From a virus, in the IMG/VR virus record IMGVR_UViG_3300047564_002169, positions 34,587-98,586 of that record: a stretch of DNA of 64,000 bases; one strand, 5' to 3'. The translations under genes and the position numbers were made by a program. The notes under the pieces were generated by a model that had not been told where the DNA came from, ran no database searches, and saw only the letters and a program-made list of their open reading frames with translations. Positions 6,992 to 57,997 of the stretch are shown here, piece after piece (the stretch's first letter is position 1; each line of letters begins with the position of its first letter).

Positions 6992-6992
6992 G

Positions 6993-7454: not shown

Positions 7455-7456
7455 CG

Positions 7457-8787: not shown

Positions 8788-8829
8788 TTATAAATAATTT
8801 ACTAGAACTATCCAGTTAGGAGAAACCCG

Positions 8830-9846: not shown

Positions 9847-9858
9847 AGGAATTACGAT

Positions 9859-11157: not shown

Positions 11158-11198
11158 TTGGTAAGTCGGTTTAATTAAACTGACGCAGAGCAGTAATT

Positions 11199-11234
11199 AA
11201 GAGGGAGACTTTAAAGTCTCCCTCTTTTTATTTT
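11199..11234 (+). terminator. Rho-independent terminator after gp23
   Basis: AAGAGGGAGACT-TTAA-AGTCTCCCTCTT hairpin followed by a T-run. Confidence 0.9.
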
Positions 11235-11249
11235 GAACTAAATAATCAT

Positions 11250-11780: not shown

Positions 11781-11836
11781 TACAAATTTGTTGTTGTGAT
11801 AATATGAAGTAACATATCACTAATTATGAGGTTATT

Positions 11837-12243
11837 ATGAATATTGAGCAAGTACAAGAAATGTGGGACATTGATTGCCAAATCGATGATAATTATCTCG
11901 GTGAAAATTCCACGCAGACCCCCAAATTACACGCCAAGTACGTCAAACTCTTGGTGCAGGTAAAACTAAAGCACACAAAACTACAATCCGTTTATATCGC
12001 GGGGAACTTTCTCGTGATGAATTAACGAGGCTTGGGTGGGATCAATGGCAAGGAGTCAAACCATTAAAAAATGAAATGGATGAGTTTCTATCAGGAGATT
12101 CTGAATTAGTTACGATTAAAATGAAAATTGATTATCTTGAAACTATGATATATCTTCTTGAATCAATTTTACAACAAATAAAAGCCAGAGACTGGCAGAT
12201 TAAAACAGCCGTGGATTATAAAAAATTCCTGGCTGGTCACTAA
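11837..12243 (+). pseudogene. uvsY: UvsY recombination mediator, frameshifted at ~11987-11990
   Basis: N-half (W..D..ID...PKLHAKY) runs in the frame of 11837; C-half RLYRGELSRDEL...WDQWQG...RDWQIKTAVDYKKFLAGH* runs in another frame from 11989 to TAA 12241-12243. Confidence 0.85.
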
Positions 12244-24213: not shown

Positions 24214-24873
24214 ATGAAACTTAGTAAAGAAACCTTGGCATTGTTTAAGAATTTTGCGAGTATTAACCAGAATCTTCTTTTGAAAAATGGTAATAAACTT
24301 GCCACTATTTCTTCACAAAAGAACGTGATGGCAGACGCGACCGTCGCCGAAACATTCCCAGATTTTGCAATCTATGACTTGAATGAATTTCTTGGCGCCA
24401 TGTCGTTGTTTGATGACCCCGATCTGGGTTTTCAAGAAAAGTTTGTGTCTATCAGTCAGGGTAGTATGAAGATTAAATTCTTTGCAGCTGACGCTTCTGT
24501 TCTCGTCGCTCCACAGAAAGCGATCACATTCCCTGAAGCAGAAATCAACTTTAGTTTGTCTGCTGCGAATCTGAATATGATTAATAAGACTGCTTCTGTT
24601 CTTCGAGCAGCAGATGTGTCAATCGTTGGTGATGGGTCTACCGTCACTGCAGTTGTAGGCGACAAGAAGAATGCTAGTGGAAACTCTTTCAGTGAACCAG
24701 TTGGCACCACTGACAAGACATTTAAAGTTAATCTGAAAGTAGAAAATTTGAAGATGTTGCCTGGAGATTACGCGGTATCAATCTCAAGCAAGAAAATCTC
24801 TCGTTTCAAGTCCCCAAACAGCGATCTAGTTTATTATGTAGCGGTTGAAGCTGATTCCTCATTCGAGTTCTAA
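24214..24873 (+). CDS. gp45: Sliding clamp
   Basis: MKLSKET..L.KNFA.IN, IYDLNEFL, Y.VA.E.DS C-terminus. Confidence 0.96.
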   Translation: MKLSKETLALFKNFASINQNLLLKNGNKLATISSQKNVMADATVAETFPDFAIYDLNEFLGAMSLFDDPDLGFQEKFVSISQGSMKIKFFAADASVLVAPQKAITFPEAEINFSLSAANLNMINKTASVLRAADVSIVGDGSTVTAVVGDKKNASGNSFSEPVGTTDKTFKVNLKVENLKMLPGDYAVSISSKKISRFKSPNSDLVYYVAVEADSSFEF

Positions 24874-33162: not shown

Positions 33163-35661
33163 TTGGAATTTTACACATCTGCACAATCCTGGGGCGACAA
33201 AATCCTCGTTCGAGGTTATGAAAACGGTAGACCGTATATGCGTAGGGTAGATTTCTACCCTACGCTTTTTGTCACGTCTAAAGAACCAAGCACATATAGT
33301 ACTCTTGAAGGTCAATGGGTGGATGAAGTTAAACCTGGAACCATCAAAGAAACAAAAGAATTTGTTAAAAAGTACGAGGATGTGGCAGGGTTTGCTATCT
33401 ACGGTAACACCAATTATGCATACCAGTACATCAGCGATACATATCAAGATGATGTCAACTGGGACATGGAACAGATCAAAGTCTTTACAATTGACATCGA
33501 GACTGAAACCGAGTATGGTTTTCCAGATATCCGTAGCGCCAACGAAGAAGTTTTGCTAATCACTGTCAAAGATCTTATTCAGAAAAAGATCGTTACATTT
33601 GCTCAAACAAAATATGGTGTGTATAACACTCAGCGTAAAAATGTTACGATGATTAACTGTCGTGACGAGCAACAACTTCTTAAAGAGTTTATGATATGGT
33701 GGCAACAAAACTATCCAGATGTAATCACTGGATGGAACACCGACTTCTTCGATGCACCCTATCTCATCAAGAGAATCTATAACCAACTTGGAGAGGCGTT
33801 TGCCAAGAAGATTAGCCCATGGGGTATCATCAACGAACGCAATACATTTATCAAGGGTAGTGAAGAACTGCACTACGATATTTCTGGTATTAGTCAGCTT
33901 GATTATCTGCAGTTGTATAAAAAGTATACCTACACAAAACAAGAATCTTATCGTCTTGACTACATCGCTCAAGAAGAACTAGGTGACAAGAAGAAAGAAA
34001 ATCCTGGAACAGATTTCCGTGATTTCTATACCAATTATTGGGACCATTTCGTTGAGTATAACATTCATGACGCAGAGTTGGTTGACCAACTTGAAGACAA
34101 GATGCGTCTGCTTGAACTGCATCTAACTATGGCATACAATGCCAAGATTAATTTCGAGGATGTTTATTCACAGGTTCGTATGTGGGATACGATTATCTAC
34201 AATCACCTACGTAAGAAGAACATTGTGATTCCAATGAAGGTTTCTAATGGTGGTAAGTTTGAGCAATTCGAAGGCGCTTATGTTAAAGATCCAATCATTG
34301 GTCAACATAAGTGGATGGCATCTTTTGATTTGAACAGCCTATATCCGCACTTGATTATGCAGTATAACATCAGTCCAGAAACTTTGACTAGCGAGAAACT
34401 CTCCGTGACTGTTGATAAACTGCTCAACAAAGAGATTGATACATCTCACGCAAAACAGAGAGATCTTTGCCTCACTGCTAATGGTTGGACATATCGCAAA
34501 GACATCAAAGGATTTATGCCTGAGTTGATGGAACAGATGTACGTCAACCGTAGTAAGTATAAGAAGCAGATGTTGAAGGTTGAACAAGAATATCAAAATG
34601 ACAAAAGCAAGAAGCACTTATTGAAAGAAATTAGCAGACTGAACAACCTGCAGATGGCTATGAAGATTGCGCTGAACTCAGCTTACGGCGCAATGGGTAA
34701 CCAATATTTTCGTTACTTTGATATCCGTATGGCTGAGGGTATTACCACTTCTGGTCAATTGTCAATCCGTTGGATGGCAAACAAACTTAATGCCATGCTT
34801 AACAAGACGCTTAAAACTCAAGACAGAGACTTTGTTGTGGCGATTGACACTGACTCGATCTATCTGACGTTGGAAGAACTTGTCGAGAAAGTTGTCAAGG
34901 ATAAAGATACCGAAGGTAAGATCAAATACATGGACCGTATTTGTGAAGAGGTAATTCAACCATTCATCGACCAAGGTTATCAAGAGTTGGCTGAGTATAT
35001 GAATGCTTACTCGCAGAAGATGCAGATGAAGCGAGAGGTTCTAGCTGATAAAGCTATTTGGACGGCAAAGAAACGCTATGTTATTAATGTGCATAATTCT
35101 GAAGGTGTTCAGTATGCAAAACCTAAAGTGAAAGTCATGGGGTTGGAGATGGTTAAGTCTTCAACTCCAGCTGTCATTCGCGATAAGTTGCGCGACTCAC
35201 TGCAGGTTATTCTTCATGGAACAGAGAAAGACCTTCACAAGTATGTCATGTCGTTTAAACAAGAATTTGACAAAATGCCAGTGGAAGATATTGCGTTTCC
35301 CCGTTCTTGTAATGGGCTAAAAACCTATGCTGGTACTCCGATCTATGTTAAAGGCACCCCCATTCAAGTTCGTGGCGCGTTGCTTTACAATCATCACCTG
35401 AAGCGTCTTGGATTGAATAAAAAGTATCAAGCAATTCGTGATGGTGATAAGATTAAGTTTGTTTATCTGAGAACACCAAATCCAATTCAGGAAGATGTTA
35501 TTGCATTCAGCCAGAGACTGCCGAAAGAACTAAATTTAGAAGCATACATAGATTACGATAAACAATTTGAAAAGGTTTTCCTTGATGCTTTACAAATTGT
35601 CATCGAATCGCTGGGGTGGAAAACACAAGAGGAAACTTCTTTGGAAGACTTCTTTGGATAA
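33163..35661 (+). CDS. gp43: Family B DNA polymerase
   Basis: DIET exonuclease, SFDLNSLYP, KIALNSAYG, DTDS; C-terminal clamp peptide SLEDFFG; TTG start. Confidence 0.98.
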   Translation: MEFYTSAQSWGDKILVRGYENGRPYMRRVDFYPTLFVTSKEPSTYSTLEGQWVDEVKPGTIKETKEFVKKYEDVAGFAIYGNTNYAYQYISDTYQDDVNWDMEQIKVFTIDIETETEYGFPDIRSANEEVLLITVKDLIQKKIVTFAQTKYGVYNTQRKNVTMINCRDEQQLLKEFMIWWQQNYPDVITGWNTDFFDAPYLIKRIYNQLGEAFAKKISPWGIINERNTFIKGSEELHYDISGISQLDYLQLYKKYTYTKQESYRLDYIAQEELGDKKKENPGTDFRDFYTNYWDHFVEYNIHDAELVDQLEDKMRLLELHLTMAYNAKINFEDVYSQVRMWDTIIYNHLRKKNIVIPMKVSNGGKFEQFEGAYVKDPIIGQHKWMASFDLNSLYPHLIMQYNISPETLTSEKLSVTVDKLLNKEIDTSHAKQRDLCLTANGWTYRKDIKGFMPELMEQMYVNRSKYKKQMLKVEQEYQNDKSKKHLLKEISRLNNLQMAMKIALNSAYGAMGNQYFRYFDIRMAEGITTSGQLSIRWMANKLNAMLNKTLKTQDRDFVVAIDTDSIYLTLEELVEKVVKDKDTEGKIKYMDRICEEVIQPFIDQGYQELAEYMNAYSQKMQMKREVLADKAIWTAKKRYVINVHNSEGVQYAKPKVKVMGLEMVKSSTPAVIRDKLRDSLQVILHGTEKDLHKYVMSFKQEFDKMPVEDIAFPRSCNGLKTYAGTPIYVKGTPIQVRGALLYNHHLKRLGLNKKYQAIRDGDKIKFVYLRTPNPIQEDVIAFSQRLPKELNLEAYIDYDKQFEKVFLDALQIVIESLGWKTQEETSLEDFFG

Positions 35662-35955: not shown

Positions 35956-37029
35956 ATGAGTATTTTAGATAAGATTAAAAAGAATAGCACCATTAAAGAT
36001 TCAGCGATTCTTTCTGAATCAAAATTCTTCAAGAAGAAGGATATGATTCCTACTTCTGTTCCGATCATCAACGTGGCTTTGTCTGGTCGTTTGGACGGTG
36101 GGTTAACCCCAGGAATTACAATGTGGGCTGGTCCAAGTAAACATTTTAAAACAGCATTCTCTTTGTTGATGGCGAAGTCCTACATGGACAAGTATGAAGA
36201 CGCTGCTCTTTTATTTTATGACTCTGAGTTCGGTACTCCGCAGTCTTATTTTGACACTTTCGGTATTGACACCAAACGAGTTGTTCATACCCCATTGACT
36301 GACGTTGAGCAATTGAAGTTTGATATCATGCAACAATTGCAAAACGTAGAACGCGGTGACCATCTCATTATTGTTATTGATTCTATCGGAAACCTTGCGT
36401 CTAAGAAAGAAGTTGAGGATGCGCTGGAAGGTAAGTCTGCGGCAGACATGACTCGCGCAAAACAAATGAAGTCGTTATTTCGAATGATCACACCCCATTT
36501 GAATCTTAAAGACATTCCATTGGTTGTAGTCAATCATACATATATGGAAATTGGTATGTTTCCCAAAGCTATCGTCGGCGGGGGAACTGGTGCGATGTAT
36601 TCGGCTGACAATGTTTATATTCTTGGTCGTCAACAAGAAAAAGAAGGAACAGAAATTGTTGGTTACAATTTTATCATCAACGTAGAAAAGAGCCGTTATG
36701 TTAAAGAAAAATCTAAAATTCCTGTTAGCGTATCTTTTGATGGTGGTCTTAGTAAGTGGAGCGGCTTATTGGATCTCGCTCTTGAATCCAAGCATGTGAT
36801 CAAACCAAGTAATGGGTGGTATTCCAAATGTGATCCCGATACTGGTGAAGTAGAAGATAAGAAATATCGTATTAAAGAAACAGAAACAAAGGATTTCTGG
36901 ATGAGTATTCTAACAAGCAAATCATTTTATGATTTTATTAAGAGTAAATACTCGATTGGTCAGAACGGGCAAATGTTGCAAGAAGATGACCTGAATAAAG
37001 CATTAGAGGATTTGGAATTTGATGAGTGA
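35956..37029 (+). CDS. uvsX: RecA-like recombinase
   Basis: GPSKHFKT, YDSEFG, IDSIGNLAS, GGGTG..YSAD. Confidence 0.96.
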   Translation: MSILDKIKKNSTIKDSAILSESKFFKKKDMIPTSVPIINVALSGRLDGGLTPGITMWAGPSKHFKTAFSLLMAKSYMDKYEDAALLFYDSEFGTPQSYFDTFGIDTKRVVHTPLTDVEQLKFDIMQQLQNVERGDHLIIVIDSIGNLASKKEVEDALEGKSAADMTRAKQMKSLFRMITPHLNLKDIPLVVVNHTYMEIGMFPKAIVGGGTGAMYSADNVYILGRQQEKEGTEIVGYNFIINVEKSRYVKEKSKIPVSVSFDGGLSKWSGLLDLALESKHVIKPSNGWYSKCDPDTGEVEDKKYRIKETETKDFWMSILTSKSFYDFIKSKYSIGQNGQMLQEDDLNKALEDLEFDE

Positions 37030-37351
37030 TCATTATGTAATTCTTGAACATAAACACCATGGTCTGCAGACAATAAAATTGACTGCAGGACCATTTTCAG
37101 GTATAATCTATACTTACGGTAAGATTCAATTTCAGGAAGACGAACAACATGATTGTGTTCGTCTTAAGTTTCAATATGACATTATAGATTATGCTGATAA
37201 AGTTTTGCATGATGCGGCTAGTTTTGAGTCATACATAGGTAGTATTCTTGAAGAATTAATTTATATTGGCGTTAAAGAAAACAGTATTACATACACAGGT
37301 GGAATTGATGAGAATAGAGCAGAAGATTCTAACCAATCTTATACACGATGA
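37022..37351 (+). CDS. Hypothetical protein (T4 gp40 position)
   Basis: Between uvsX and gp41; G.F.GIIY.YG motif; contains a TTGACT-17-TATAAT promoter (37079-37107). Confidence 0.65.
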   Translation: MSDHYVILEHKHHGLQTIKLTAGPFSGIIYTYGKIQFQEDEQHDCVRLKFQYDIIDYADKVLHDAASFESYIGSILEELIYIGVKENSITYTGGIDENRAEDSNQSYTR

Positions 37352-38696
37352 GCAATATTGCCGGAAGGTGGTTCCTTTCATCAAGAAAGAATATTTTGCA
37401 GATAAAAAAGATTTAGTCGTAGCATCAGAGATTATTAAATTTTTTAACAAGTATAATAAAACTGCAACAAAAGAAATTCTTCAGATTGAAGTTCAAAACC
37501 GTAAAGATTTAACTGACAAAGAATTGGCTGATGTTATTCAGTTTATAGGTTCGTTGGAAAATCAACCTGTCAATCAAGACTGGATGCTCGAAAATACTGA
37601 GAAGTTTTGTAAGGATCGCGCAGTTTATAATGCGATCCTTAATTCTATTTCGATCATTGACGGACGAGATAAGGAACACACTAAAGATGCTATTCCTACT
37701 ATTTTATCTGATGCTCTTGCCGTGTCTTTTGATAGTCACGTCGGTCACGATTATCTTGATGACTACGAATCTCGTTATGAGTTTTACCATCGCGTTGAGG
37801 AGAAAATTGCTTTTGATTTGGAGATGTTTAACAAAATCACCAAAGGTGGATTGAGTAAGAAAACTCTGAACATCGCATTAGCTGGTACTGGCGTTGGAAA
37901 ATCTCTGTTCATGTGCCACGTTGCTGGTTCCTGTTTGACGCAAGGTAAAAATGTATTATACATAACGATGGAAATGGCAGAAGAACGAATCGCAGAACGT
38001 ATTGACGCGAACAAGTTGAATCTGACCATGGACGAACTGAAGGTGATAGACAAAGACATTTTTGACAATCGTATCGCTAAGATTCGCGAAAAAACTCAAG
38101 GTAAATTGATAATTAAGGAATATCCAACTGCCAGCGCACACGCTGGACATTTTCGAGCCTTGCTTGAAGAATTGAAATTAAAAAGAGAATTTACTCCTGA
38201 TATTATTTTCATTGACTATCTTAATATTTGCGCCAGCCAACGAATGAAGCAAGGTGCTAATGTAAACTCTTATACATATGTGAAGGCGATTGCTGAAGAA
38301 CTACGTGGTTTGGCAGTTGAATATAATGTACCGATTGTTAGCGCGACTCAAACAACTCGATCTGGATACACAAATTCAGACCCAGGGCTTGAGGATACTT
38401 CTGAATCTTTTGGTCTACCTGCCACAGCAGATTTCATGTTTGCGCTGGTCAGCAACGAAGAATTGCAATCATTGAATCAAATTATTGTTAAACAGTTAAA
38501 GAATCGTTACAATGATCCAAATTTCTATAAACGATTTGTGATAGGAATTGATAGAGCGAAGATGAAACTGTATGATGTTGAATCATCTGCGCAAGACAAT
38601 CTATCCGACGCGGGACAAGATGATGAGCCCATGTTTGATAAATCTTCATTCGGGCGCAGACAAAAAACAGAATCATTTGAGGGATTTAAGTTTTAG
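37308..38696 (+). CDS. gp41: Replicative DnaB-like helicase
   Basis: AGTGVGKS, ITMEMAEE, IDYLNIC, TSESFGLPATAD, KQLKNRY. Confidence 0.97.
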   Translation: MRIEQKILTNLIHDEQYCRKVVPFIKKEYFADKKDLVVASEIIKFFNKYNKTATKEILQIEVQNRKDLTDKELADVIQFIGSLENQPVNQDWMLENTEKFCKDRAVYNAILNSISIIDGRDKEHTKDAIPTILSDALAVSFDSHVGHDYLDDYESRYEFYHRVEEKIAFDLEMFNKITKGGLSKKTLNIALAGTGVGKSLFMCHVAGSCLTQGKNVLYITMEMAEERIAERIDANKLNLTMDELKVIDKDIFDNRIAKIREKTQGKLIIKEYPTASAHAGHFRALLEELKLKREFTPDIIFIDYLNICASQRMKQGANVNSYTYVKAIAEELRGLAVEYNVPIVSATQTTRSGYTNSDPGLEDTSESFGLPATADFMFALVSNEELQSLNQIIVKQLKNRYNDPNFYKRFVIGIDRAKMKLYDVESSAQDNLSDAGQDDEPMFDKSSFGRRQKTESFEGFKF

Positions 38697-38702
38697 GAGA
38701 AA

Positions 38703-40070
38703 ATGATGGTAAAGGTAATAGTAGCAAAACAAAAATATGACGCTTCACATTTATTGGGACAATTCGTTGATGAACGACATTATGATGTCCTGGTTGAAGA
38801 AGACTGCGATGTTTATGCTCCACCTGACTGCGATCTTGGTACTCAGACTTCATGCTCGAATACATGCAATACTTGTGATAAGGGTATGGATGAGAAAAAG
38901 ATTATATTCAAGTTTCGTAAAAATTACTTTTCAAAAGAACTTCAAGAACAAGCGTACCTTGGTCTAAAAGAAGCCGCGACTGAAACACAGAATCGCGGTC
39001 TTGCTGCTGGTCCACGCGAAGGCAAACTTGGTAATCGTGAATGGGTTACTGATTATGAATTTGATGTTATTGATTACTTCAGTAACCCAAAGTCAAATCT
39101 ATTCGGCGCAGACCCTATTGAAGAAATAAAAGAATTGCATAAGAATAAACCTGCGCAACCATCCAATAAAAATAACGTGTGGTCTATCCAAGCAGTTAAA
39201 CAAGATGAGTTTGACTTCGAACGTTGGATTGAGATGGTTAAGCAGATGGAACCAGAAGATCAGAAAGCAGAAACCCGCAGGATGGTTCAGAGATATATCT
39301 GTCAAACCACATATGCTAATGGCGTTATGTCTGGTATCGCTGGGTGGTTCGACCGATATCCTCGTATCCCCTATGGTCGAGCGACATCATACACTGCCAA
39401 TAATTATGACAAATTCAAACAGTCCTTCCCATTTTTACAGCATCTTGCTGAGGGTTTTAAAGAGTTGTTACCTTGGCGGTATGGTAATCAGATGAAAGCG
39501 GCGAAAAAGTTGGACCCATCATTCTTGGTTCCTGGAACTCCATTTACTACGATCACAGTGAACAAAACCTTTCGAACTGCCGCACATTATGATGCAGGTG
39601 ATCTGGATACAGGTTTGTCCAATCTTTTAGTCCTTTCCAATAATGGTAATTACAGGGGTGGGTATTTAATAGCACCAGAATATCGAATTGCTGTCAATGT
39701 GCGCCCCGGCGATTTGTTATTGATTAATAATCATGAAGTTATGCATGGTAATACACCAATTGAATTGCTTGATGACCAAGCAGAACGTGTTTCATTGGTA
39801 TGTTACTTCCGCGAGAAGATGCTTGAGTTGGGTAGCAAACAATATGAAGATTGTCGTAGAGAATATGTTGAATCGCGCAGACTTAATAAAGACCACCCAG
39901 GGCACAAACATGAAGATGGTACAGAACGTCATTTGTGGAATGGCGTCAGTATTGGGATGTGGGAAGACAAAGAATGGTATGATTACTGTGAAGCTAAAAT
40001 CGGGCGCGAAGAAATGCTGAAGATGCATCCGGAAGCGAATAAAACTTCATTAGAGGAGTTTTTCGGATAA
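38703..40070 (+). CDS. TET/JBP-like 2-oxoglutarate-Fe(II) dioxygenase
   Basis: FTTITVN..FRTAAHYD (HxD), distal HGNT, R.SLVCYFRE; C-terminal SLEEFFG. Confidence 0.85.
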   Translation: MMVKVIVAKQKYDASHLLGQFVDERHYDVLVEEDCDVYAPPDCDLGTQTSCSNTCNTCDKGMDEKKIIFKFRKNYFSKELQEQAYLGLKEAATETQNRGLAAGPREGKLGNREWVTDYEFDVIDYFSNPKSNLFGADPIEEIKELHKNKPAQPSNKNNVWSIQAVKQDEFDFERWIEMVKQMEPEDQKAETRRMVQRYICQTTYANGVMSGIAGWFDRYPRIPYGRATSYTANNYDKFKQSFPFLQHLAEGFKELLPWRYGNQMKAAKKLDPSFLVPGTPFTTITVNKTFRTAAHYDAGDLDTGLSNLLVLSNNGNYRGGYLIAPEYRIAVNVRPGDLLLINNHEVMHGNTPIELLDDQAERVSLVCYFREKMLELGSKQYEDCRREYVESRRLNKDHPGHKHEDGTERHLWNGVSIGMWEDKEWYDYCEAKIGREEMLKMHPEANKTSLEEFFG

Positions 40071-40747
40071 TGTGTGCTATCGTAGGAGCAATCCTTATTG
40101 AACCTTCGAAAGAAGATTTGTTAATGTTGCATCGGGTTTTCCTCGAATCTAAAATTAGAGGAAAACACGCAACAGGAATCGCTTATGTCAAACATGATAA
40201 AGTTATTATTGAGAAGCATCCAGTGTCTGCTGATAAATTTCCTTTTAACTTCTCGAAATATATCAATGAAGATGGAAATCTTTACTTAATTGGACATTGT
40301 CGTTACAGCACTTCTGATCTTGAGTATAACCAACCAATTGGTGATGACGATTCTGCAATAGTTCATAATGGTGTCATCACTCAAGAATTGCCAGAAAATT
40401 GGAAAAACATTTATGGTTACGAGACTACAACTAAAAATGATAGTGAGTTAGTGCTACATTCTCCGGATCCACTGCGTGAGTTTAGTCATATGTCGATGGG
40501 CGTCTGCAAGATAACAAAAGATAAAAGATTGCAATTTTATCGCAATGGTAAGCGCCCATTATATTTGTCTTATGTTCCGAATGGGAGTATAATTACTTCT
40601 ACTAGAGATATAGCAAACCGTTCCGGAATCAATGGGAAGCATATTGAAATCCTGATGAACCACTATATCACATTTGATGAAAAACTTGTGATGATGATCG
40701 AAAAAGTCAACGTTGCGCATGCCGTGGATTACCAAATTGGAGTTTGA
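40070..40747 (+). CDS. Class II (Ntn) glutamine amidotransferase domain protein
   Basis: N-terminal MC, RG.HATG, GHCRYST, NQP, HNG.I, NDSE. Confidence 0.88.
   Translation: MCAIVGAILIEPSKEDLLMLHRVFLESKIRGKHATGIAYVKHDKVIIEKHPVSADKFPFNFSKYINEDGNLYLIGHCRYSTSDLEYNQPIGDDDSAIVHNGVITQELPENWKNIYGYETTTKNDSELVLHSPDPLREFSHMSMGVCKITKDKRLQFYRNGKRPLYLSYVPNGSIITSTRDIANRSGINGKHIEILMNHYITFDEKLVMMIEKVNVAHAVDYQIGV
40565..40593 (+). promoter_or_regulatory. Internal sigma70-type promoter for downstream modification genes
   Basis: TTGTCT-17-TATAAT. Confidence 0.5.
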
Positions 40748-41719
40748 ATGAAATATAATACTGATGAGTTTAGCTACGGAGTTGAGCTAGAGTATGGTGA
40801 TTGCTATCGCTTCTGCGAATTGCCGGATGGTGCTCAGTGGAATGATAAAGACAATACCTGTGTTAGCAGTACAGGTATTGCTAACGATCCAACTGGTAAG
40901 ATTTATGCTTATGGTGGCGAGATCAACACCCGTCCAACAATGACGATTGCTGAGCAAATTGAACACATTGCCAAGATTAATGCGGCATTATATCCTGCTC
41001 CGATTGTTAATTACCGGAGCAACCTTCATATTCACATTCGTGTACCAAATCTTCATAATAATCTCGAGGATTGTAAGAATCTGTTACGCTATATTGAATG
41101 CTACCAGCAACAGGCATTTGATATCGTTGAAACCATTCCTGTCCCAAACAAAAATGTTCTGCCGCCAGAACAATACGAGTGGGCACTGAAGCGTATGAAG
41201 CGCCGTAAGAAGTCACATCAGCATAAGTTACCCCCTGCTCGAGTTGCAGAGATGTTAGCCTCAGATAATACCTACGACTTCTATGTTAAACACGCGCACA
41301 AAGATGCCAAGGGCGAACCTTCATGGTTCCAATGCCCGCGAGCAGGCATCAATCTGCGTCAGATGTGGGAAGAAACAAACACAATCGAGTTTCGCCACTT
41401 CCCAGGAACGCTCGATATGGTTGAGATGGAATCATGTATTCGTTGGTGCAAAGAGTTTCTCAATGCGGCATTGAACGAAGAAGATGTCTCTCCACGCGAA
41501 TTCCATGCTGAAAGCGTGTGGAAGTTTCCTGACTTTCAACCATATGAGTTTGAGACTGAACAAGTATATCAGTGGACCAACTTTGATGGTAATACAAAGA
41601 AGGATATTGAGAAGCGTATTGCTGCGCTCAGAAAAGAAATAGACATCGATGCAATCGGTAAAGTTACATCCCTTGATGTATTTCCTATCATGCGTCGTTT
41701 ACAATCAGAGGGTTTATGA
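40748..41719 (+). CDS. Putative COOH-NH2 amidoligase (GS/GCS fold)
   Basis: YGVELEY (ExE), GEINT.P, LHIHI, R..IN, TIEFRHF.GT. Confidence 0.8.
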   Translation: MKYNTDEFSYGVELEYGDCYRFCELPDGAQWNDKDNTCVSSTGIANDPTGKIYAYGGEINTRPTMTIAEQIEHIAKINAALYPAPIVNYRSNLHIHIRVPNLHNNLEDCKNLLRYIECYQQQAFDIVETIPVPNKNVLPPEQYEWALKRMKRRKKSHQHKLPPARVAEMLASDNTYDFYVKHAHKDAKGEPSWFQCPRAGINLRQMWEETNTIEFRHFPGTLDMVEMESCIRWCKEFLNAALNEEDVSPREFHAESVWKFPDFQPYEFETEQVYQWTNFDGNTKKDIEKRIAALRKEIDIDAIGKVTSLDVFPIMRRLQSEGL

Positions 41720-42138
41720 AAGTATTGTTCCTTTGCCATGGCAATGTAAATCGCAGCGCAGCTGCGGAGATTATCACTAAGCAAGACTATCCTCACATTG
41801 AAGTTAAGTCAGCTGGGCTTAAGACTACAGATGGTAGGATCACTGCCAAGAAGATGCGTGAGGTTCTTAATCATCATGGTTACAAGACAGAGGGCATTCG
41901 TTCCACTGCAGTCACTCAAGAGTTGGTTGATTGGGCAGATGAAATTTTCTATATGGACGATGCGAATAAAAAGAGATTTGTCGATAAATTCGGAGACTTA
42001 TCGAAGGCACAGAAGCTGTCTAATTTAATTCCTGGAGTTAACAAGATTCCAGATCCAGCATTTGCCGATGGTACTGATATGCACCATGAAGTTGTTAACC
42101 TAATTAAGACTGCTCTGAATACATGGACTACCGCTTAA
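41716..42138 (+). CDS. LMW protein-tyrosine-phosphatase/ArsC-fold phosphatase
   Basis: VLFLCHGNVNRS (CX5RS), SAG, AD.I..MD, IPDP. Confidence 0.88.
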   Translation: MKVLFLCHGNVNRSAAAEIITKQDYPHIEVKSAGLKTTDGRITAKKMREVLNHHGYKTEGIRSTAVTQELVDWADEIFYMDDANKKRFVDKFGDLSKAQKLSNLIPGVNKIPDPAFADGTDMHHEVVNLIKTALNTWTTA

Positions 42139-43139
42139 CAGACAATCGTAGAGAAGCATTTATACGCTGGTACGCATGGTCGTTAAAATATGATGATTGC
42201 GACCCTGCTGTTTGGGCTACGAATTATCTAAACAAACGCTATGAGCACAATGACGAACAGCGTCTATGGCTCTGCTGGTTATATGGTAACACATATTATC
42301 TGCCAACATCATGGATTCTCATGAATGAATTTCCAGACTTTGAGTTGGCTACGGTAGATCGTATGGAGCAATGGAACACTGCTAATTATAAACGACTGCG
42401 GTATCAAACAGACACGAAGTGGAATAAAGGACATCTCCCATCCATGTTCGCGTCTTATCAAACATTTATTGGAAATAAAACACAACGAGAATTGTTAGAG
42501 TCATATTATGGACACAATGAGGAAGAAAATTTTGATAACTTGTGGAAAAGCGTTAAAAGTGGTTTGCATAAATTCGGGCGTTACAGCACTTGGTTTTATC
42601 TTCAGCATCTTAAGCACACCGCTAATATTCGGATCAATCCTACTTCTCTTATGTTGGACGATTTTGATGGTTCTCGTTCTCATCGTAATGGGCTTCTGTT
42701 CGCCCTCGCACAAGAGCACAATGTGGATAGAAAACTCACTGCTGGAGAGTATTCGAATCTTGAGTCTCAAGCCTATGACATTCTTTGTGAGACGAAAACT
42801 AGATTTCCAGAACTCGCGAAATCTATAGATTATTTTACTATGGAAACTTGTCTGTGTTCATTCAAAAAAGTTTTTCGTGAACGTCACGGTCGCTATCTCG
42901 GGTATTACCTAGATCGTCAGGCTGAAGAAATTATGCAGTGTGAACAAGATGGATGGTATGGTATCGATTGGGATGTTTTATGGCAAGCGCGTGAAGAAAC
43001 GATTGACTCCAGGCTAGACCATAAACGAGGTATTGATAAAGAAAAGTTTTCTTGGTTTTTACACACTGGTAAATTTCAAAATTTAGAATGGATGTTTAAT
43101 GATGAGTGCGCGGTTTTAATTGGATTGGAGAATTTTTAA
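42123..43139 (+). CDS. aGPT-PPase clade 2-like amino acid:DNA transferase
   Basis: D.DP....L, W...YG.TY, FGRYS.WFY, ET.LC.FKK, Y.GYY.DR...E; helix-hairpin-helix glycosylase-like pattern. Confidence 0.72.
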   Translation: MDYRLTDNRREAFIRWYAWSLKYDDCDPAVWATNYLNKRYEHNDEQRLWLCWLYGNTYYLPTSWILMNEFPDFELATVDRMEQWNTANYKRLRYQTDTKWNKGHLPSMFASYQTFIGNKTQRELLESYYGHNEEENFDNLWKSVKSGLHKFGRYSTWFYLQHLKHTANIRINPTSLMLDDFDGSRSHRNGLLFALAQEHNVDRKLTAGEYSNLESQAYDILCETKTRFPELAKSIDYFTMETCLCSFKKVFRERHGRYLGYYLDRQAEEIMQCEQDGWYGIDWDVLWQAREETIDSRLDHKRGIDKEKFSWFLHTGKFQNLEWMFNDECAVLIGLENF

Positions 43140-43453
43140 TGATAACTACTACTTATTATAATGATGCAGACGCAATTGATCACTTGATATCGAAATGGAA
43201 CTTCAATCGCCTTGTCATCAAACATAGCGTATCAGAATTACAGATAGCGTCTCTTGGAATGGAGCATTCAAATTCATATACTACTGCGATTAAAGAAATG
43301 CTGTCGAAGCGCGCTGCTCAAGCTCTGGTGAGTAAAATCGCGTTCACCAGAAGATATGATTATAACAGTTTCACTCATGAATTTATAGGGCGTGTTTGGT
43401 GTTTCACTGAGCAGGAATTGCAACAACTAATTAAGGAAGCTCGAAATGTTTAA
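43139..43453 (+). CDS. Hypothetical protein
   Basis: Coupled ORF (TAATG) inside the modification operon. Confidence 0.55.
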   Translation: MITTTYYNDADAIDHLISKWNFNRLVIKHSVSELQIASLGMEHSNSYTTAIKEMLSKRAAQALVSKIAFTRRYDYNSFTHEFIGRVWCFTEQELQQLIKEARNV

Positions 43454-44051
43454 TGATAAGTTAGGTACTTCGGACAGCGTCAATATTCAGAAAGTGACCA
43501 ACTCTATGAAAGTTCGCAAACTTATTGCAGTTGGTGGTAGCCCAGGAACAGGTAAAACTACTCTTTTTCGTAAATTTATGGAGGGTAAATCTTGGATTCA
43601 AGTCGAGCCAGCCAAACTGATTTCTGCTATGTATAATGCAGAACTAGATCTATATGTCCTAGGTAAATACGAAGAAGGTGAAACCTTCGCCGGAACTGAT
43701 CGCCTTTCTATGGCAGTTCAGCCGCCAATGCAAGAATGGATCGCTTCCCACAACTGCAACATTCTTTTTGAGGGTGACCGAATTTTTAATCAGTCTTTTC
43801 TAGAATTCGCTATGGGGCTTCCGCATACTGACCTACAGGTAGTTATCTTAACTGCACCCAAAGAACTCTTAGAACAACGCTATAAAGACCGTGGTTCAGA
43901 GCAATCTGAACAATTTCTAAGAGGGCGAGAAACCAAATACAGTAAAATTCAATCAAACTTTGACTTGATGTCATATATCACTGAGTTTAAAAACACCAAT
44001 TTAGACGATCAGGCGAAGGTTCTTACATTTCTGAATAAACATTTAGGGTGA
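43446..44051 (+). CDS. P-loop nucleotide/DNA kinase
   Basis: GGSPGTGKTT, GKY....FAGTD.LS, FEGDR, R...RGS. Confidence 0.82.
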   Translation: MFNDKLGTSDSVNIQKVTNSMKVRKLIAVGGSPGTGKTTLFRKFMEGKSWIQVEPAKLISAMYNAELDLYVLGKYEEGETFAGTDRLSMAVQPPMQEWIASHNCNILFEGDRIFNQSFLEFAMGLPHTDLQVVILTAPKELLEQRYKDRGSEQSEQFLRGRETKYSKIQSNFDLMSYITEFKNTNLDDQAKVLTFLNKHLG

Positions 44052-44115
44052 ATGCGAAAGAAGTATCGAGGAATACAAAGACCTAAATAGTAGATTATTT
44101 TAGGGATTCGCAGAT

Positions 44116-44916
44116 ATGGCTCAAGAAGGGTTTCTTTATGAAGAAAAGGCTTATGCCGCTCTTCACAAATATAATATAACTACAGGTGGAACTGCAAGAG
44201 CATCCCACGACAAACCAGATTTGACCATACAAAAAGGTAAGACTAAAATTGGTTGTGAATTAAAAAATTCACCAACTGCAGCAGGTTCATTGGTTTTAAA
44301 ATATATAAACGGTAGCTGGGAATATGGGGACACAGGCGATGAAGATTCTCCAGAAAAAGATTTTCTAAAAGCTCTTGGTGTTTCTGCTAGATTATTACAA
44401 ACAATGACCAGTAAATGGAAGGGTAAAACACCCATGCTTCAAAATGAGCCTTCCGGTAAGAAAAAACTTGCTATTGGTAGTTGGAGTGTTTTAGCTGATA
44501 AAGATAGAGCGTATAAGCATGACTTGGCTATGTTCGGTGGACAAAATGAGGTGCATATTGATGTAGGCGCAAAGGCAGTTTGCGATTATTATTTAACTAA
44601 AAAATGTTCATATATCAATATTGGTACTCATGGATTTTTTACCTTAAATGGTAAAGACGCGCTGGGATTGAATAAAAAACTTAGAGACTTAAAACATCCA
44701 CTTATTCCTAATTTTGCCAACAGTGCTTCTTGTAAAATTAGAGTTAGGGTTCAAGTTAAAAGCACTTCTAAAAAAGACTATCAGTTTGTTATGACATTGC
44801 AGTTTAGTAATGTCATAAAGTCACCATATAATATCGCCCCTTTAAAAACAGGTTCAAAATCTGATATTGACTTAACTAAACTTAACGCAGACCCTATACT
44901 AATGGCATTTACATAA
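44116..44916 (+). CDS. Putative PD-(D/E)xK nuclease
   Basis: E in N-terminal helix, KPDL ... ELK; late promoter CCTAAATA at 44082. Confidence 0.6.
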   Translation: MAQEGFLYEEKAYAALHKYNITTGGTARASHDKPDLTIQKGKTKIGCELKNSPTAAGSLVLKYINGSWEYGDTGDEDSPEKDFLKALGVSARLLQTMTSKWKGKTPMLQNEPSGKKKLAIGSWSVLADKDRAYKHDLAMFGGQNEVHIDVGAKAVCDYYLTKKCSYINIGTHGFFTLNGKDALGLNKKLRDLKHPLIPNFANSASCKIRVRVQVKSTSKKDYQFVMTLQFSNVIKSPYNIAPLKTGSKSDIDLTKLNADPILMAFT

Positions 44917-44939
44917 AAATGAAGAACCTTGGTAAAAAT

Positions 44940-46304
44940 ATGTTAACGTTTAATGCGTTTTTAAAAGAAGTGGTTCAACCCCAAACTTTGTTGTGGGAGG
45001 AGCTACTAATAGAAGCAAAAAACGCTCGTGAGAACGATGACATGGGTAAATTCAACGAACTGCGTTTAGCATATCATTTATCGCATGAGGATTCCTCCCA
45101 AAAACGTATGCCAGAACATCATCGTTCTAAAAATAAAGAAGACCCATTACATAATGGCGACCCGCAAACAGTACACGACAACATTCTTGGTAGATTGGAT
45201 CCTAAAAAAGCTAACATGATCGATGTTGGCGCAGATGATTCTGCTAATGCTTGGAGAAAACAAACTCTTAAACCTGGTGAAAAAGTTGGTAAAGTTTACT
45301 GGACATCTAATCGTGACACAGTTAAAAAAAATGGAGATCTAACTCCTGGAGATCATTTTAAAACTACTGGTGTTCATGACCCAAACTCTAACGCTGATTT
45401 GATGGCGCAGATAGTTCATCACAAAACTGGTGATCATATTAGATGGGAACCGATCTCTGCTAAGATTGGTAAGAATGATCCTAATCTATCAAATCCTGGA
45501 ATATCTTCTCTTGAGAAAATGTCAAATCATGAAGCTGGGCATTTTTCAAATATGGAAACTCCTCACACAGATCATGTCGTTAGCTTGGGTTATCATCCGG
45601 ATAGCCGCGATGACCGTCATGCTCAGTGGAAAATTGACGCATTAGCCACCAATCAAAAAGAAGGCGGTATTGATGCAGTTCGTAAAGAAGTCGCTGATTT
45701 AAAATCAAGACATGAACGCGGAGAAAAGTTAGAATCCAATCATAAGAAGTATATTGCGCACGGTGAAACGTGGTTGAATACTTATGATAGTTTAAAACCA
45801 GAGCAACAACAAGAAATGATGGCTAAAGCTAAACACCGCGCTCAGTCTGCTGTTGATTCTTCATTACATATTAGAAAAGCGATCACACAAAAGATTTCTG
45901 ACGGCTTGAATGCTCGCGTTAAAAAGAATGAAGATGGAACATTTGACGATTCTGACTTAAGAGCTACTCTTTATAAGAGTTACGCTCCAGAAACTAGATT
46001 CAAACATAAGATTGTTCATTCCAGAATTTCTTCAGATGGTAATACTATCACCCCAGAAGTTCATGATGCAGACGGATATGCAAAAGATCATTTCAATCGT
46101 TTTGCTAATTTAAGAGTTGTCGCTGGCGATGGCATTACGTCATATGTTAAAGGACACCTAAAAGACGAGAAAGGTGATATTGTTAAAGATAAAAATGGTA
46201 ATCCTAAAGAAATGTCTGTCGCGCAAATTGCTATCAAGGGTACTTCCGGTCCAATGATGGGTAATGCTGGCTCAATGAGTCTTATCAATCGTAAGGATGA
46301 ATAA
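44940..46304 (+). CDS. Putative internal head protein, possible degenerate PD-(D/E)xK nuclease
   Basis: N-terminus MLTFNAFLKE (capsid-targeting-like); G.FNE, NAD ... ISAK. Confidence 0.6.
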   Translation: MLTFNAFLKEVVQPQTLLWEELLIEAKNARENDDMGKFNELRLAYHLSHEDSSQKRMPEHHRSKNKEDPLHNGDPQTVHDNILGRLDPKKANMIDVGADDSANAWRKQTLKPGEKVGKVYWTSNRDTVKKNGDLTPGDHFKTTGVHDPNSNADLMAQIVHHKTGDHIRWEPISAKIGKNDPNLSNPGISSLEKMSNHEAGHFSNMETPHTDHVVSLGYHPDSRDDRHAQWKIDALATNQKEGGIDAVRKEVADLKSRHERGEKLESNHKKYIAHGETWLNTYDSLKPEQQQEMMAKAKHRAQSAVDSSLHIRKAITQKISDGLNARVKKNEDGTFDDSDLRATLYKSYAPETRFKHKIVHSRISSDGNTITPEVHDADGYAKDHFNRFANLRVVAGDGITSYVKGHLKDEKGDIVKDKNGNPKEMSVAQIAIKGTSGPMMGNAGSMSLINRKDE

Positions 46305-48067
46305 TGATAGCGTTTCATCAATTTCTTCTGGTTGAATCTGATGACGGTGATGGTAAACTAAAACACATCCATCACGCTGAAGATCGACCATTGTTCCACG
46401 GAAAACCAGGGTTTGAACATGCATACGGCGCTCTTATGGCGTCGCATATGCATATAAAAAATCGCGCACAATCTAATGCTCTCACTACAAAGTATGATGG
46501 TTCACCATCAATAGTTTTTGGCCACGATGAACAAGGTAAATTTTTTGTATCGTCAAAGTCGGCGTTTAATAAAAATCCGAAGATTAATTATACGCCTGAA
46601 GACATTGATAAAAATCATGGTCATGCTCCAGGTCTTGCAGAAAAATTAAAACACGCTCTTGAACATTTACCAAAAGTCGCTCCAAAGGAAGGAACTTTCC
46701 AAGGAGACTTAATGTATAGCGGCGACGATGTTCAAAAGAGTAAAGATGGTTCTGTATCATTCACGCCAAACACGATCACATATACAGCTAAAGGTGACAC
46801 TGCTAAAAAGATTAGTAAATCAAAACTAGGCGTTGTTGTTCATACTCAATACAATGACAAGGGTAGAGCAGAACCGCTTAGTAAAGATAACGAAAATGCG
46901 TTTGGTCGCCATCCAGATGTACATTGGCATTCAGCCAATTACGATGCTGGTAAAGCAAAGTATGAAGCCGCAGCCCAAACGCAGTTTATTAAACATATGT
47001 CTGCAGCGAAAGCAATCCATGATAAACATGGAGATACAATGTACGCAGCTGCTGAGCCTCATATTGGAGAAGCCGGTCATCTTGGTACATATATCAATCA
47101 AACAGTTCGTGATGGTTCTAAACCAACTTCAGCAGGATTACAAAAACACATTGCTGGTAAATACCAGAAAATGGTTGAAAAACTAAAGACTGAAAAATCA
47201 CAGAATGCTAAATTAGAAGAATTGCGTGGGCATGTAGAGCATATTAAAAATAATGCTGAACATTATACTAATTTGTTGTCTATGCATCACCATTTGCAAC
47301 AAGCAAAAAATGGGCTTGTTTCTTCTCTAGAATCTAACGAGGGTGAATATGCGCACTCTATTGGCGGTATCGCCTCGAAACCAGAAGGTTTTGTGTTTAG
47401 TCATAAAGGCGAACCCACTAAGCTAGTCAATCGCGCAGAGTTCGCTCGCCAAAACTTACTAAAGGTAAGAACTCAATCTGCGGCGACTACTGAAAAAGAC
47501 AAACATCATGTTATTGCTTTTGGTCGTATGAACCCACCAACTGCTGGACACGAACAGGTCGTAAATACGTTAAAAGATAAAGCAAAAGAAGTTGGTGGTG
47601 ATCATACTCTTATTCTGTCTCATTCTCATGCAACCAAAGATGGTAAGAATCCATTAAGCCCAGAGCAAAAATTAAAACACGCTCGCAATGCGTTTCCTAA
47701 AACTAATATTGAAGTTGCTTCCAAGGATAAGCCAACTCTACTGCACCACGCTGTCGATTTATACAACAAAGGAGTCACACATCTACACTTCATCGGCGGT
47801 TCTGACCGCGCGAGTATGGCTGATATGCTTAAGAAATATAACGGTCAGAAATCTGCGCATGGTTATTATAACTTTAAAAACATTGAGTTCCATTCCTCTG
47901 GGCAGCGCGAAGAAGGAGCTACGGGTGTAACTGGTATTTCTGGAACCAAACTACGTCATCTCGCTGCAACTGGTGAAAAGAAAGAGTTCCACTCAAACTT
48001 ACCATCAAAGATGAAACCAGAACATAAAGATGCCTTGTACAACGATCTGAGAAAGGCGATGCCATGA
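46304..48067 (+). CDS. Ligase-like nucleotidyltransferase fused to a NadD/cytidylyltransferase-like domain
   Basis: KYDG, FQGD, EGFVF, KLV motifs; C-domain FGRMNPPTAGH, FIGGSDR, ISGTKLR; N-terminus MIAFHQFLLVE. Confidence 0.75.
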   Translation: MIAFHQFLLVESDDGDGKLKHIHHAEDRPLFHGKPGFEHAYGALMASHMHIKNRAQSNALTTKYDGSPSIVFGHDEQGKFFVSSKSAFNKNPKINYTPEDIDKNHGHAPGLAEKLKHALEHLPKVAPKEGTFQGDLMYSGDDVQKSKDGSVSFTPNTITYTAKGDTAKKISKSKLGVVVHTQYNDKGRAEPLSKDNENAFGRHPDVHWHSANYDAGKAKYEAAAQTQFIKHMSAAKAIHDKHGDTMYAAAEPHIGEAGHLGTYINQTVRDGSKPTSAGLQKHIAGKYQKMVEKLKTEKSQNAKLEELRGHVEHIKNNAEHYTNLLSMHHHLQQAKNGLVSSLESNEGEYAHSIGGIASKPEGFVFSHKGEPTKLVNRAEFARQNLLKVRTQSAATTEKDKHHVIAFGRMNPPTAGHEQVVNTLKDKAKEVGGDHTLILSHSHATKDGKNPLSPEQKLKHARNAFPKTNIEVASKDKPTLLHHAVDLYNKGVTHLHFIGGSDRASMADMLKKYNGQKSAHGYYNFKNIEFHSSGQREEGATGVTGISGTKLRHLAATGEKKEFHSNLPSKMKPEHKDALYNDLRKAMP

Positions 48068-57316: not shown

Positions 57317-57997
57317 ATGAAAGTTAGACTAATATCATATAGCAAACCAACAGAAGCACTTGAGGATAGTAACATTTCCGATATCCAAGAATTAGTAGCA
57401 TTTTGCGCTAGAGTTTCTAATCCTAACAATCAATATAATAATACTACGTCATCAAAATTAGTAAAGTATTTAATCGCCAATAAACACTTTAGTCCACTAG
57501 AAATGGTGAATGCATGCATTGAGATTGAAACGACTCGCGATATTGCTCGACAGATTCTAAGACATCGTTCTTTTTCATTTCAAGAATTCTCTCAACGATA
57601 TGCTGATCCGACTAAGGATCTCTCATTTGTTCTACGTGAAGCGCGTTTACAAGACGAAAAGAATCGACAAAATAGTATTGAGATGGAACCCACCATCGGT
57701 AACGTGATGATCCAAGATGAGTGGAAACAACGTCAACAAGATCTTCTTCGTATGGTCGCTGACACATACAACTGGGCTATTAGTAAAGGCATCGCCAAAG
57801 AACAGGCAAGAGTGGTACTTCCAGAAGGGCTCACTGTGTCTCGTCTTTATATGAACGGCACATTGCGTAGCTGGATACACTACTGCGAATTAAGAATGGC
57901 GAATGGAACACAAAAAGAACACGCTGATATTGCTAAAGAAATTGCCAAGGTAATTGCTGAAGTGTTTCCATTGGCTAATGAATTTGTAAATCAATAA
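57317..57997 (+). CDS. thyX: Flavin-dependent thymidylate synthase
   Basis: H.SPLE, RQILRHRSFSFQEFSQRY, LR....TQKEH. Confidence 0.96.
   Translation: MKVRLISYSKPTEALEDSNISDIQELVAFCARVSNPNNQYNNTTSSKLVKYLIANKHFSPLEMVNACIEIETTRDIARQILRHRSFSFQEFSQRYADPTKDLSFVLREARLQDEKNRQNSIEMEPTIGNVMIQDEWKQRQQDLLRMVADTYNWAISKGIAKEQARVVLPEGLTVSRLYMNGTLRSWIHYCELRMANGTQKEHADIAKEIAKVIAEVFPLANEFVNQ

Follow-up and report, generated by a model that had tools for sequence, protein, structure and literature searches.

Among metavirome contigs linked to thymidine hypermodification, Lee et al. (2021) found some that lack a dUMP hydroxymethylase and carry a TET_JBP gene beside a kinase and an amino acid:DNA transferase (AADT), from which they inferred that thymine (T) is converted to 5-hydroxymethyluracil (5hmU) in DNA. 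Amidoligase and glutamine amidotransferase (GATase) genes, with no role assigned, also occur among the thymidine-hypermodification contigs of that study (PMC8989533). O'Toole et al. (2026) showed that phage 5mYOX enzymes have T-dioxygenase activity in vivo and in vitro, the clusters in which this activity was shown being those that lack a C5-methyltransferase (C5-MT). According to these authors, GATases, P-loop kinases and AADTs are "consistently linked" to their clade C1, many members of which need a ParB-like activator (PMC13229309). Here we describe an operon of this kind, at positions 38703-44051 of a 64-kb window, which is the whole stretch of DNA analysed and the last 64 kb of the 98.6-kb IMG/VR record IMGVR_UViG_3300047564_002169 (about 61% complete). 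The operon is real and conserved and probably functional, and is a variant of the published kind, without ParB and with clamp-type tails and an amidoligase-phosphatase cassette. With moderate confidence, we read it as a post-replicative thymidine hypermodification operon whose enzymes would be recruited by the sliding clamp and act in the steps proposed below. The sequence-only reading of this DNA, which presented it as a candidate new pathway, overstated its novelty, since the same inference was drawn by Lee et al. (PMC8989533) and phage T-dioxygenases were demonstrated by O'Toole et al. (PMC13229309).

The operon comprises seven open reading frames (ORFs) directly 3' of gp41, with neighbouring ORFs overlapping or abutting:

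38703-40070, + strand: 5mYOX (TET/JBP) dioxygenase, 455 aa; Pfam Tet_JBP, 1.7e-25
40070-40747, + strand: class II (N-terminal nucleophile, Ntn) GATase, a stand-alone domain of 225 aa that starts Met-Cys; GATase_6, 1.1e-08, 35.6 bits against a cut-off of 27
40748-41719, + strand: Amidoligase_2 carboxylate-amine ligase of the glutamine synthetase (GS)/gamma-Glu-Cys ligase (GCL)/PafA fold, 323 aa, first gene of the variable cassette; Pfam, 9.6e-06, 26.1 bits against a cut-off of 22
41716-42138, + strand: low-molecular-weight (LMW) phosphatase, 140 aa, second gene of the cassette; LMWPc, 2.8e-17, with a CX5R(S) P-loop and a DP loop
42123-43139, + strand: AADT (aGPT-Pplase), 338 aa, ending in GLENF; Pfam ADDT (PF18724), 1.2e-21, 77.9 bits against a cut-off of 26.2
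43139-43453, + strand: ORF6, 104 aa, no known family
43446-44051, + strand: P-loop kinase, 201 aa, presumed 5-hydroxymethyldeoxyuridine (5-hmdU) DNA kinase; Ploopntkinase3, 1.6e-07, 31.5 bits against a cut-off of 27

Six of the seven proteins exceed the curated Pfam cut-offs, ORF6 being the exception. The 5mYOX and GATase genes are joined by a TAATG, the GATase and amidoligase genes abut, and the amidoligase and phosphatase genes share an ATGA. The phosphatase and AADT genes overlap by 16 nt, AADT and ORF6 share a second TAATG, and ORF6 and the kinase gene overlap by 8 nt. To judge from these junctions, the seven genes are translationally coupled. The arrangement of seven abutting or overlapping genes after gp41, with TAATG and ATGA junctions, had been read from the letters and was borne out, as were the gene identities: the Ntn GATase, the COOH-NH2 ligase, the CX5R phosphatase and the P-loop kinase all lie above their Pfam cut-offs with conserved motifs, and the ORF starting at 42123, described as aGPT-PPase2-like, clears the ADDT cut-off by a wide margin.

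The dioxygenase would carry out the first step of the proposed pathway. Its AlphaFold (AF2) model, built from 27 homologues (pLDDT 89.5, pTM 0.82), resembles human TET2 (Z 20.9, rmsd 4.6, 275 residues aligned) and Naegleria NgTET1 (Z 19.2, rmsd 3.6, 229 residues aligned). The iron triad H295-x-D297...H348 is invariant and the 2-oxoglutarate (2OG)-binding R362 is nearly invariant in the 27 homologues. Together with the Pfam match, these folds and the conserved triad confirm the HxD...H dioxygenase of TET/JBP type that had been proposed. Residues 1 to about 398 make up the double-stranded beta-helix core, which is interrupted by a large insert (residues about 100-200), and a C-terminal extension covers residues 376-455. 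As TET2 and NgTET1 align from residue 1 to about 398, the N-terminal 225 aa, which are blank in Pfam, correspond to strands of the TET/JBP core and the large insert; a fused ParB or other domain in this region was thereby ruled out. The insert is probably the "variable insertion" of O'Toole et al. (PMC13229309). Compared with the ParB-dependent subclass of these authors, the enzyme has the extended C-terminus and the linkage to GATase, kinase and AADT, and has no ParB partner. About 1,700 homologues were found at 50% clustering. Among the best 150, about 25 are of the long form, and most of the others are about 300 aa long and match residues 198-390 only; for one such short relative in IMG/VR, the neighbouring genes were uninformative. 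The closest long dioxygenases from cultured phages are those of Caulobacter phage Cr30 and Stenotrophomonas phage DLP6, which share 46-47% identity with the window enzyme and carry the annotation "SNF2 DNA repair protein".

With regard to the substrate, no gene of the PF00145 (C5-MT) or PF00303 (ThyA family) type was found in the 98.6-kb record, which has a gene for normal dTMP supply:

57380-57970 (91966-92556 of the record), + strand: ThyX thymidylate synthase; PF02511, 4.3e-43

To offset the incompleteness of the record, we used four related IMG/VR genomes, 96-100% complete, that carry the same operon, and PF00145, PF00303 and PF02195 (ParB) are absent from all four. For ParB, there was no match at E<=1 in the record and none at E<=0.1 in the four relatives, although a very divergent ParB could escape the model. 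The statement that ThyX is present and that a dUMP hydroxymethylase and a C5-MT are missing thus held in profile searches of the entire record, and extending the search for a C5-MT or a ThyA-type hydroxymethylase beyond the window returned none in the record or the four relatives. As no route to 5-methylcytosine (5mC), 5-hydroxymethylcytosine or nucleotide-level 5hmU is apparent, thymine in DNA is the only evident substrate. The absence of a C5-MT and a dUMP hydroxymethylase is the criterion used for this purpose in the literature (PMC13229309, PMC8989533). On this gene content, it is well supported that 5mYOX would oxidise thymine in already replicated DNA to 5hmU. The idea that 5hmU formed on DNA after replication feeds the kinase and the transferase also gains support, as the enzyme assignments hold and the four complete relatives lack the rival genes.

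The dioxygenase could instead act on 5mC provided by the host or by an unseen phage methylase, in which case cytosine would be hypermodified. TET-type enzymes and some phage 5mYOXs do oxidise 5mC (PMC8256090), the closest solved folds are those of 5mC dioxygenases, and the record is incomplete. This is nevertheless very improbable, given the lack of a PF00145 gene in the record and in the four nearly complete relatives, the fact that the kinase/AADT chemistry is known for 5-hmdU only, and the T-dioxygenase activity of C5-MT-free phage 5mYOX clusters.

In the pathway that we propose, 5mYOX would oxidise thymine in double-stranded phage DNA to 5hmU, and the P-loop kinase would phosphorylate the hydroxymethyl group to give 5-PmdU. 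The AADT would then displace the phosphate with a nitrogen nucleophile, namely ammonia released from glutamine by the Ntn GATase, which would serve as the glutaminase subunit of the AADT; this would yield 5-aminomethyldeoxyuridine (5-aminomethyl-dU). Using ATP, the amidoligase would join a carboxylate, most likely that of an amino acid such as glutamate, to the amine, giving an N-acyl-aminomethyl-dU, and in relatives of the GNAT type the amine would be acylated by a GNAT instead of the ligase. The LMW phosphatase would remove a phosphate, either from 5-PmdU that has failed to react or perhaps from a phosphorylated precursor of the side chain. Finally, placement of 5mYOX and the AADT on gp45 clamps would replace the ParB activator of other phage T-dioxygenases. 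It is plausible that the end product, which would replace thymine to some extent, is an undescribed base; the literature searched gives no end product for any cluster that combines a GATase with an amidoligase.

Searches of IMG/VR gave 318 relatives of the dioxygenase, 80 of which were fetched, and 38 of the amidoligase. The comparison covered about 115 related loci, of which about 93 could be scored. The order gp41-5mYOX-GATase-[cassette]-AADT-(ORF6)-kinase is found in all loci long enough to judge, and its recurrence in about 115 loci is far beyond chance. The cassette varies. The most common one is a GNAT-like gene of 213-226 aa (Pfam Acetyltransf_1, 7e-05). The amidoligase and phosphatase form the cassette in about 30 of the 93 scorable loci, and the two genes are adjacent wherever the locus runs past the amidoligase. 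In a few relatives, a 335-aa gene without a known family follows the dioxygenase instead, and other cassettes add unassigned genes or the following:

L014:13725-15155, L018:12870-16354, L009:11362-11958 and L053:3981-5069: extra tailoring genes between core genes, encoding radical-SAM enzymes, a second 2OG-Fe(II) oxygenase or a GT1-like glycosyltransferase

This variety implies, as far as gene content can tell, that several different end products may exist within one phage lineage. ORF6 copies, 34-47% identical, occupy the same position in relatives; they occur in GNAT-type loci and are missing from the other amidoligase-type loci. The window's combination of amidoligase-phosphatase and ORF6 was observed only once. 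ORF6 itself had no match in Pfam, PHROGs, NCBIfam or PADLOC and no usable neighbour in the ESM Atlas, which gives it a low-quality model (pLDDT 0.41).

The window combines two types of loci in a mosaic. Its 5mYOX shares 88-89% identity with the enzymes of L004-L006 and L008, which are GNAT-type loci, and 86% with that of L007, a locus that stops short of the cassette. For the amidoligase and phosphatase, identity is 89-96% to their counterparts in L085-L092, where the dioxygenases reach only 67-73%. Nucleotide homology with L004 and L005 breaks at 40730-40734 and returns at 42123, which are the ends of the cassette. In a quick maximum-likelihood tree of 67 dioxygenases, the window falls inside a GNAT-type clade (SH-aLRT 96-99), and the strongly supported branches of this tree require at least three changes of cassette type. 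Based on these identities, the homology breaks and the tree, we conclude that the cassette was swapped as a unit around a fixed four-enzyme core. The core consists of the dioxygenase, GATase, AADT and kinase, and the amidoligase-phosphatase pair replaces the GNAT-like gene exactly at gene boundaries.

The amidoligase model (AF2, pLDDT 91.5) has 19 best structural matches (Z 10.7-5.9) that are all of the GS/GCL/YbdK/PafA type and are followed by unrelated folds. Its residues E13, E15, H94, H96 and R216 are invariant in relatives, and a sequence search of solved structures with this protein gave nothing usable. Characterised ligases of the GS/GCL fold usually activate the gamma-carboxylate of glutamate, so a gamma-glutamyl product is a reasonable guess. 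The phosphatase contains the motifs CHGNVNRS and IPDP, which are conserved in relatives, and its nearest solved relative is the arginine phosphatase YwlE (4pic, 3.5e-11); on these motifs it is an intact LMW protein tyrosine phosphatase.

The nature of the nucleophile was approached through the GATase and the AADT. In 79 unique relatives of the GATase, the motifs MC..., GHCRYSTS, HNG, ND.EL and RNGKRP are at least 95% conserved, with the catalytic Cys directly after the initiator Met; a sequence search of solved structures gave nothing usable for this protein. The ADDT match of the AADT spans profile positions 19-231 of 232, and its partner kinase is encoded two genes downstream. The GATase accompanies every cassette type, including many GNAT-type loci without any amidoligase. 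As it belongs to the core, its ammonia acceptor should be a core enzyme too.

A search for longer AADT homologues identified nine proteins (P0276-P0284, 608-646 aa) that hold an AADT homologous to that of the window. In at least seven of the nine, an N-terminal Met-Cys GATase is fused to the C-terminal AADT. P0276, which has no relative in IMG/VR, is 31% identical to the window GATase (E 6e-26) and, in its C-terminal half, 40% identical to the window AADT (E 7e-65). This is also how all class II amidotransferases are built, with an N-terminal glutaminase that precedes the synthase. Another fusion, the 643-aa P0283, is encoded in L126 (IMGVR_UViG_3300010367_000050, 6944-12132), where it is followed directly by two genes for Pfam 5-hmdU DNA kinases (PF18748 and PF18723) and by a ThyA-family gene, likely a dUMP hydroxymethylase. 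By its gene content, L126 is a classical cluster with nucleotide-level 5hmU, a dioxygenase-free form of glutamine-fed thymidine hypermodification. L126 also has a YfbR-like deoxynucleotidase-like gene, a weak match just under the Pfam cut-off. From the fusions, we infer that the GATase and AADT swap the phosphate of 5-PmdU for ammonia to give 5-aminomethyl-dU, and the fusions and their kinase neighbours point to glutamine-derived ammonia as the probable nucleophile.

These data also bear on another possible use of the ammonia. If the AADT uses a free amino acid, like its counterparts in M6, PaMx11 and ViI, the amidoligase could form an acyl phosphate on it and the GATase could deliver ammonia, yielding an amino-acid-amide thymidine, while the conversion of T to 5hmU and 5-PmdU would be unchanged. 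The coupling of an acyl phosphate to ammonia or an amine is the chemistry of the GS/GCL fold, the GATase and amidoligase genes of the window abut, and characterised AADTs all use amino acids or putrescine (PMC8989533). We consider this unlikely, as the GATase is present in every locus, including the many GNAT-type loci that have no amidoligase, and is fused in independent proteins to the AADT and not to the amidoligase.

According to an older proposal from comparative genomics, phage amidoligase/GATase pairs reportedly act on non-DNA targets such as peptide tags. Only the dioxygenase, kinase and AADT would then modify DNA, and the GATase, amidoligase and phosphatase would act on a peptide tag, a protein or a small metabolite. 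Literature annotations place Amidoligase_2 and GATase pairs in many phages without DNA-modification genes, and PafA-type members of the fold ligate proteins. In contrast, all 38 IMG/VR relatives of the window amidoligase are encoded in the same operon, with the GATase gene on one side and the AADT gene on the other, and the translational coupling of the genes and the GATase-AADT fusions also tie these enzymes to DNA modification, which leaves the non-DNA role with a low probability.

The ammonia-based pathway further depends on the kinase. Its Walker A motif GxPGTGKTT and its LFEGDR motif are conserved in relatives, and the presumed role as a 5-hmdU kinase is based on gene context and the conserved Walker A motif. 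The nearest homologue from a cultured phage is in the cluster of Caulobacter phage Cr30 (38%). A homologue that is 35% identical occurs in Methylophilales phage Melnitz (MZ577095.1, 2.7-6.8 kb; L123), two genes after an HhaI-type C5-methylase, and this arrangement suggests that the Melnitz cluster could represent a similar pathway directed at cytosine. In all relatives, the kinase has a KVL.FL motif 6-8 residues before the C-terminus. This motif departs from the L[ED]xF end pattern considered below, and might be a third, divergent clamp-docking motif.

Two of the core enzymes end like the DNA polymerase of the same genome. The relevant features are the following:

40038-40067, + strand: C-terminal peptide of 5mYOX, ...KTSLEEFFG, residues 446-455, a putative gp45-docking tail; near-identical to the gp43 tail
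43122-43136, + strand: C-terminal GLENF of the AADT, a second clamp-type tail
35638-35658, + strand: C-terminal SLEDFFG of the gp43 DNA polymerase, the reference clamp-binding tail
24214-24873, + strand: gp45 sliding clamp, the proposed docking platform; gp45-slide_C, 8.5e-09, and DNA_PPF, 2.3e-4 (under the family cut-off); gp44-type clamp loader genes follow

An L[ED]xF ending is present in three of the 203 window ORFs of at least 60 aa, and these three are gp43, 5mYOX and the AADT. In nearly all of the 80 related loci, 5mYOX ends in SLE[EDG]FF(G) or a close variant; most homologues with 27-56% identity have a looser tail, and the linker before the tail varies. The AADT ends in the GL[ED]xF type across related loci. 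A complex of the gp45 trimer with 5mYOX residues 396-455 was predicted with a score of 0.62, compared with 0.01 for the best of three controls; of 78 solved complexes, 51 score this high, as do 2 of 108 mismatched pairs. Agreement between runs is at least 90% of contacts, with a partner pLDDT of at least 59. The predicted contacts involve 5mYOX residues 446-455 only, on gp45 residues 32-39, 101-107, 193-195 and 208-213. The tails of 5mYOX and the AADT are predicted to dock on gp45, and these two enzymes of the pathway are probably brought to gp45 clamps that remain on freshly replicated DNA. A precedent is the T4 alpha-glucosyltransferase, which is reported to bind gp45 (Sommer et al. 2004; PMC13216743). 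As these genomes have no ParB, DNA tethering, which O'Toole et al. suggest as the function of ParB (PMC13229309), may here be provided by the clamp.

Taken together, these features allow a more specific reading, which we regard as tentative and, in its full form, doubtful: gp45 would do the job of ParB and make the modification replication-coupled, the AADT would be the synthase half of a split GATase and aminate 5-phosphomethyl-uracil in DNA, and the amidoligase would build an undescribed N-acyl (e.g. gamma-glutamyl) aminomethyl-uracil.

Several points weigh against the clamp-recruited, ammonia-based pathway. The record itself is only about 61% complete. The 5-hmdU kinase families PF18748 (HMUDK_HMUD1) and PF18723 (HMUDK_hel) are not among the 14 Pfam hits of the window kinase at E<=0.1, and the same scan finds both in L126. 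By BLAST at E 1e-3, this kinase has no match in the genomes of ViI-like or M6-like phages, the groups with characterised 5-hmdU kinases. Identity between the window AADT and those of ViI-like phages, in which the serine transferase has been characterised, is only 27-29%. What the phosphatase does in the pathway is a guess. Close relatives of the window amidoligase never occur with the GNAT-like gene, but a distant amidoligase and a GNAT-like gene are found together in L048, so one does not strictly exclude the other. For the polymerase of RB69, a T4-like phage, the complex of clamp and peptide has been solved, so the score of the predicted complex may reflect likeness rather than binding. Characterised AADTs never use ammonia (PMC8989533), and some clade C1 5mYOXs without ParB had no detectable activity in E. 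coli (PMC13229309). For the T4 alpha-glucosyltransferase, the interaction with gp45 is reported not to be the main determinant of the modification level (PMC13216743). In the literature searched, no DNA chemistry has been reported for this phage or its close relatives, including Cr30 and DLP6.

The genome that hosts the operon is that of a T4-like phage, as indicated by the genes upstream, which follow the T4 order: UvsW, gp46/47-type nuclease subunits, gp45, gp44, DNA ligase, gp43, thioredoxin, UvsX and a gp41-type helicase. The gene directly 5' of the operon encodes this DnaB/gp41-type helicase (phrog_19, 7e-126). Judging from the gene packing, the operon is probably co-transcribed with the replication genes. 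In 37000-45200, promoters and terminators are no more numerous than expected by chance, and there is no TATAAATA inside or just 5' of the operon. A megablast search of GenBank phages with the operon gave no match, and PADLOC gave no meaningful match for any of its genes. Directly after the kinase, an ORF of 266 aa (44116-44916, + strand) has no Pfam family, and had been noted as a possible PD-(D/E)xK nuclease. Copies that are 51-62% identical are found in the same place in a few relatives (L033, L058, L081, L083 and L090), and its product could be a modification-linked nuclease. Further downstream, a protein of 587 aa (46304-48067, + strand) combines DUF6267 (1.3e-92) with a weak cytidylyltransferase-like C-terminal part, and is kept downstream of the operon in many relatives.

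To what is published on such operons, this analysis adds the fixed core around a swappable cassette, the GATase-AADT fusions, and the polymerase-like tails on the dioxygenase and the AADT. The exchangeable cassettes of about 115 relatives constitute a natural gene-swap set for assigning steps. The fusions predict a specific intermediate, 5-aminomethyl-dU made from glutamine, and the clamp tails predict that the activator missing from heterologous assays is gp45 together with its loader. If the proposed pathway is true, it would provide new enzymes for site-directed amination and acylation of DNA, and a second example, after the T4 alpha-glucosyltransferase, of base modification tied to the replisome.

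Compared with the contigs of Lee et al., the operon has the same gene logic; those clusters were listed only, without a product, a role for the GATase, a cassette analysis or clamp tails. The 5mYOX176/ParB176 system is similar in its TET/JBP enzyme, which likewise has a variable insert and is extended at the C-terminus, in its linkage to GATase, kinase and AADT, and in being post-replicative with no neighbouring C5-MT. In contrast, the window enzyme is without a ParB gene and about 150 aa longer, and its extension ends in a polymerase clamp peptide.

Pseudomonas phage PaMx11 makes 5-acetylaminomethyl-dU by means of the kinase gp49, the glycine:DNA transferase gp46, the FAD lyase gp47 and the acetyltransferase gp48 (PMC8989533). 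It shares with the proposed pathway a kinase and an AADT acting on 5-hmdU DNA, a 5-aminomethyl-dU intermediate and the acylation of the amine, and the relatives of the window mostly carry a GNAT-like cassette. However, PaMx11 takes 5hmU from the nucleotide pool and obtains the amine via glycine and a flavin lyase, whereas the window has no lyase, has a GATase, and would acylate by an ATP-dependent ligase accompanied by a phosphatase. Salmonella phage ViI, which makes 5-NeOmdU with 5-hmdU kinases (5-HMUDK, gp67/gp243) and the serine:DNA transferase gp247, represents the only group with a characterised AADT that matches the window AADT. It differs in that 5hmU is made before replication and that a pyridoxal phosphate-dependent decarboxylase is used, with no dioxygenase, GATase or amidoligase.

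Among cultured phages, Cr30 (L001, KF301602.1, 51.8-60.7 kb) resembles the window in its long dioxygenase, its AADT (Pfam, 1.3e-52) and its kinase, the nearest from a cultured phage. Its tailoring genes differ, and include a weak TAGT-like glycosyltransferase match and an inositol-1-phosphate synthase, with a dATP/dGTP diphosphohydrolase-like protein nearby. DLP6 likewise differs in its tailoring genes, and no GATase or amidoligase is found in the stretches examined of either phage. Judging by its genes, Cr30 would allow a pathway of this kind to be studied in a phage that is in culture. The T4 alpha-glucosyltransferase is likewise a clamp-binding DNA-modifying enzyme of a T4-type phage, although it belongs to another enzyme family and acts on another base. 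In the window, the tail is a near copy of that of the polymerase, and tails of the clamp type are present on two enzymes of the proposed pathway.

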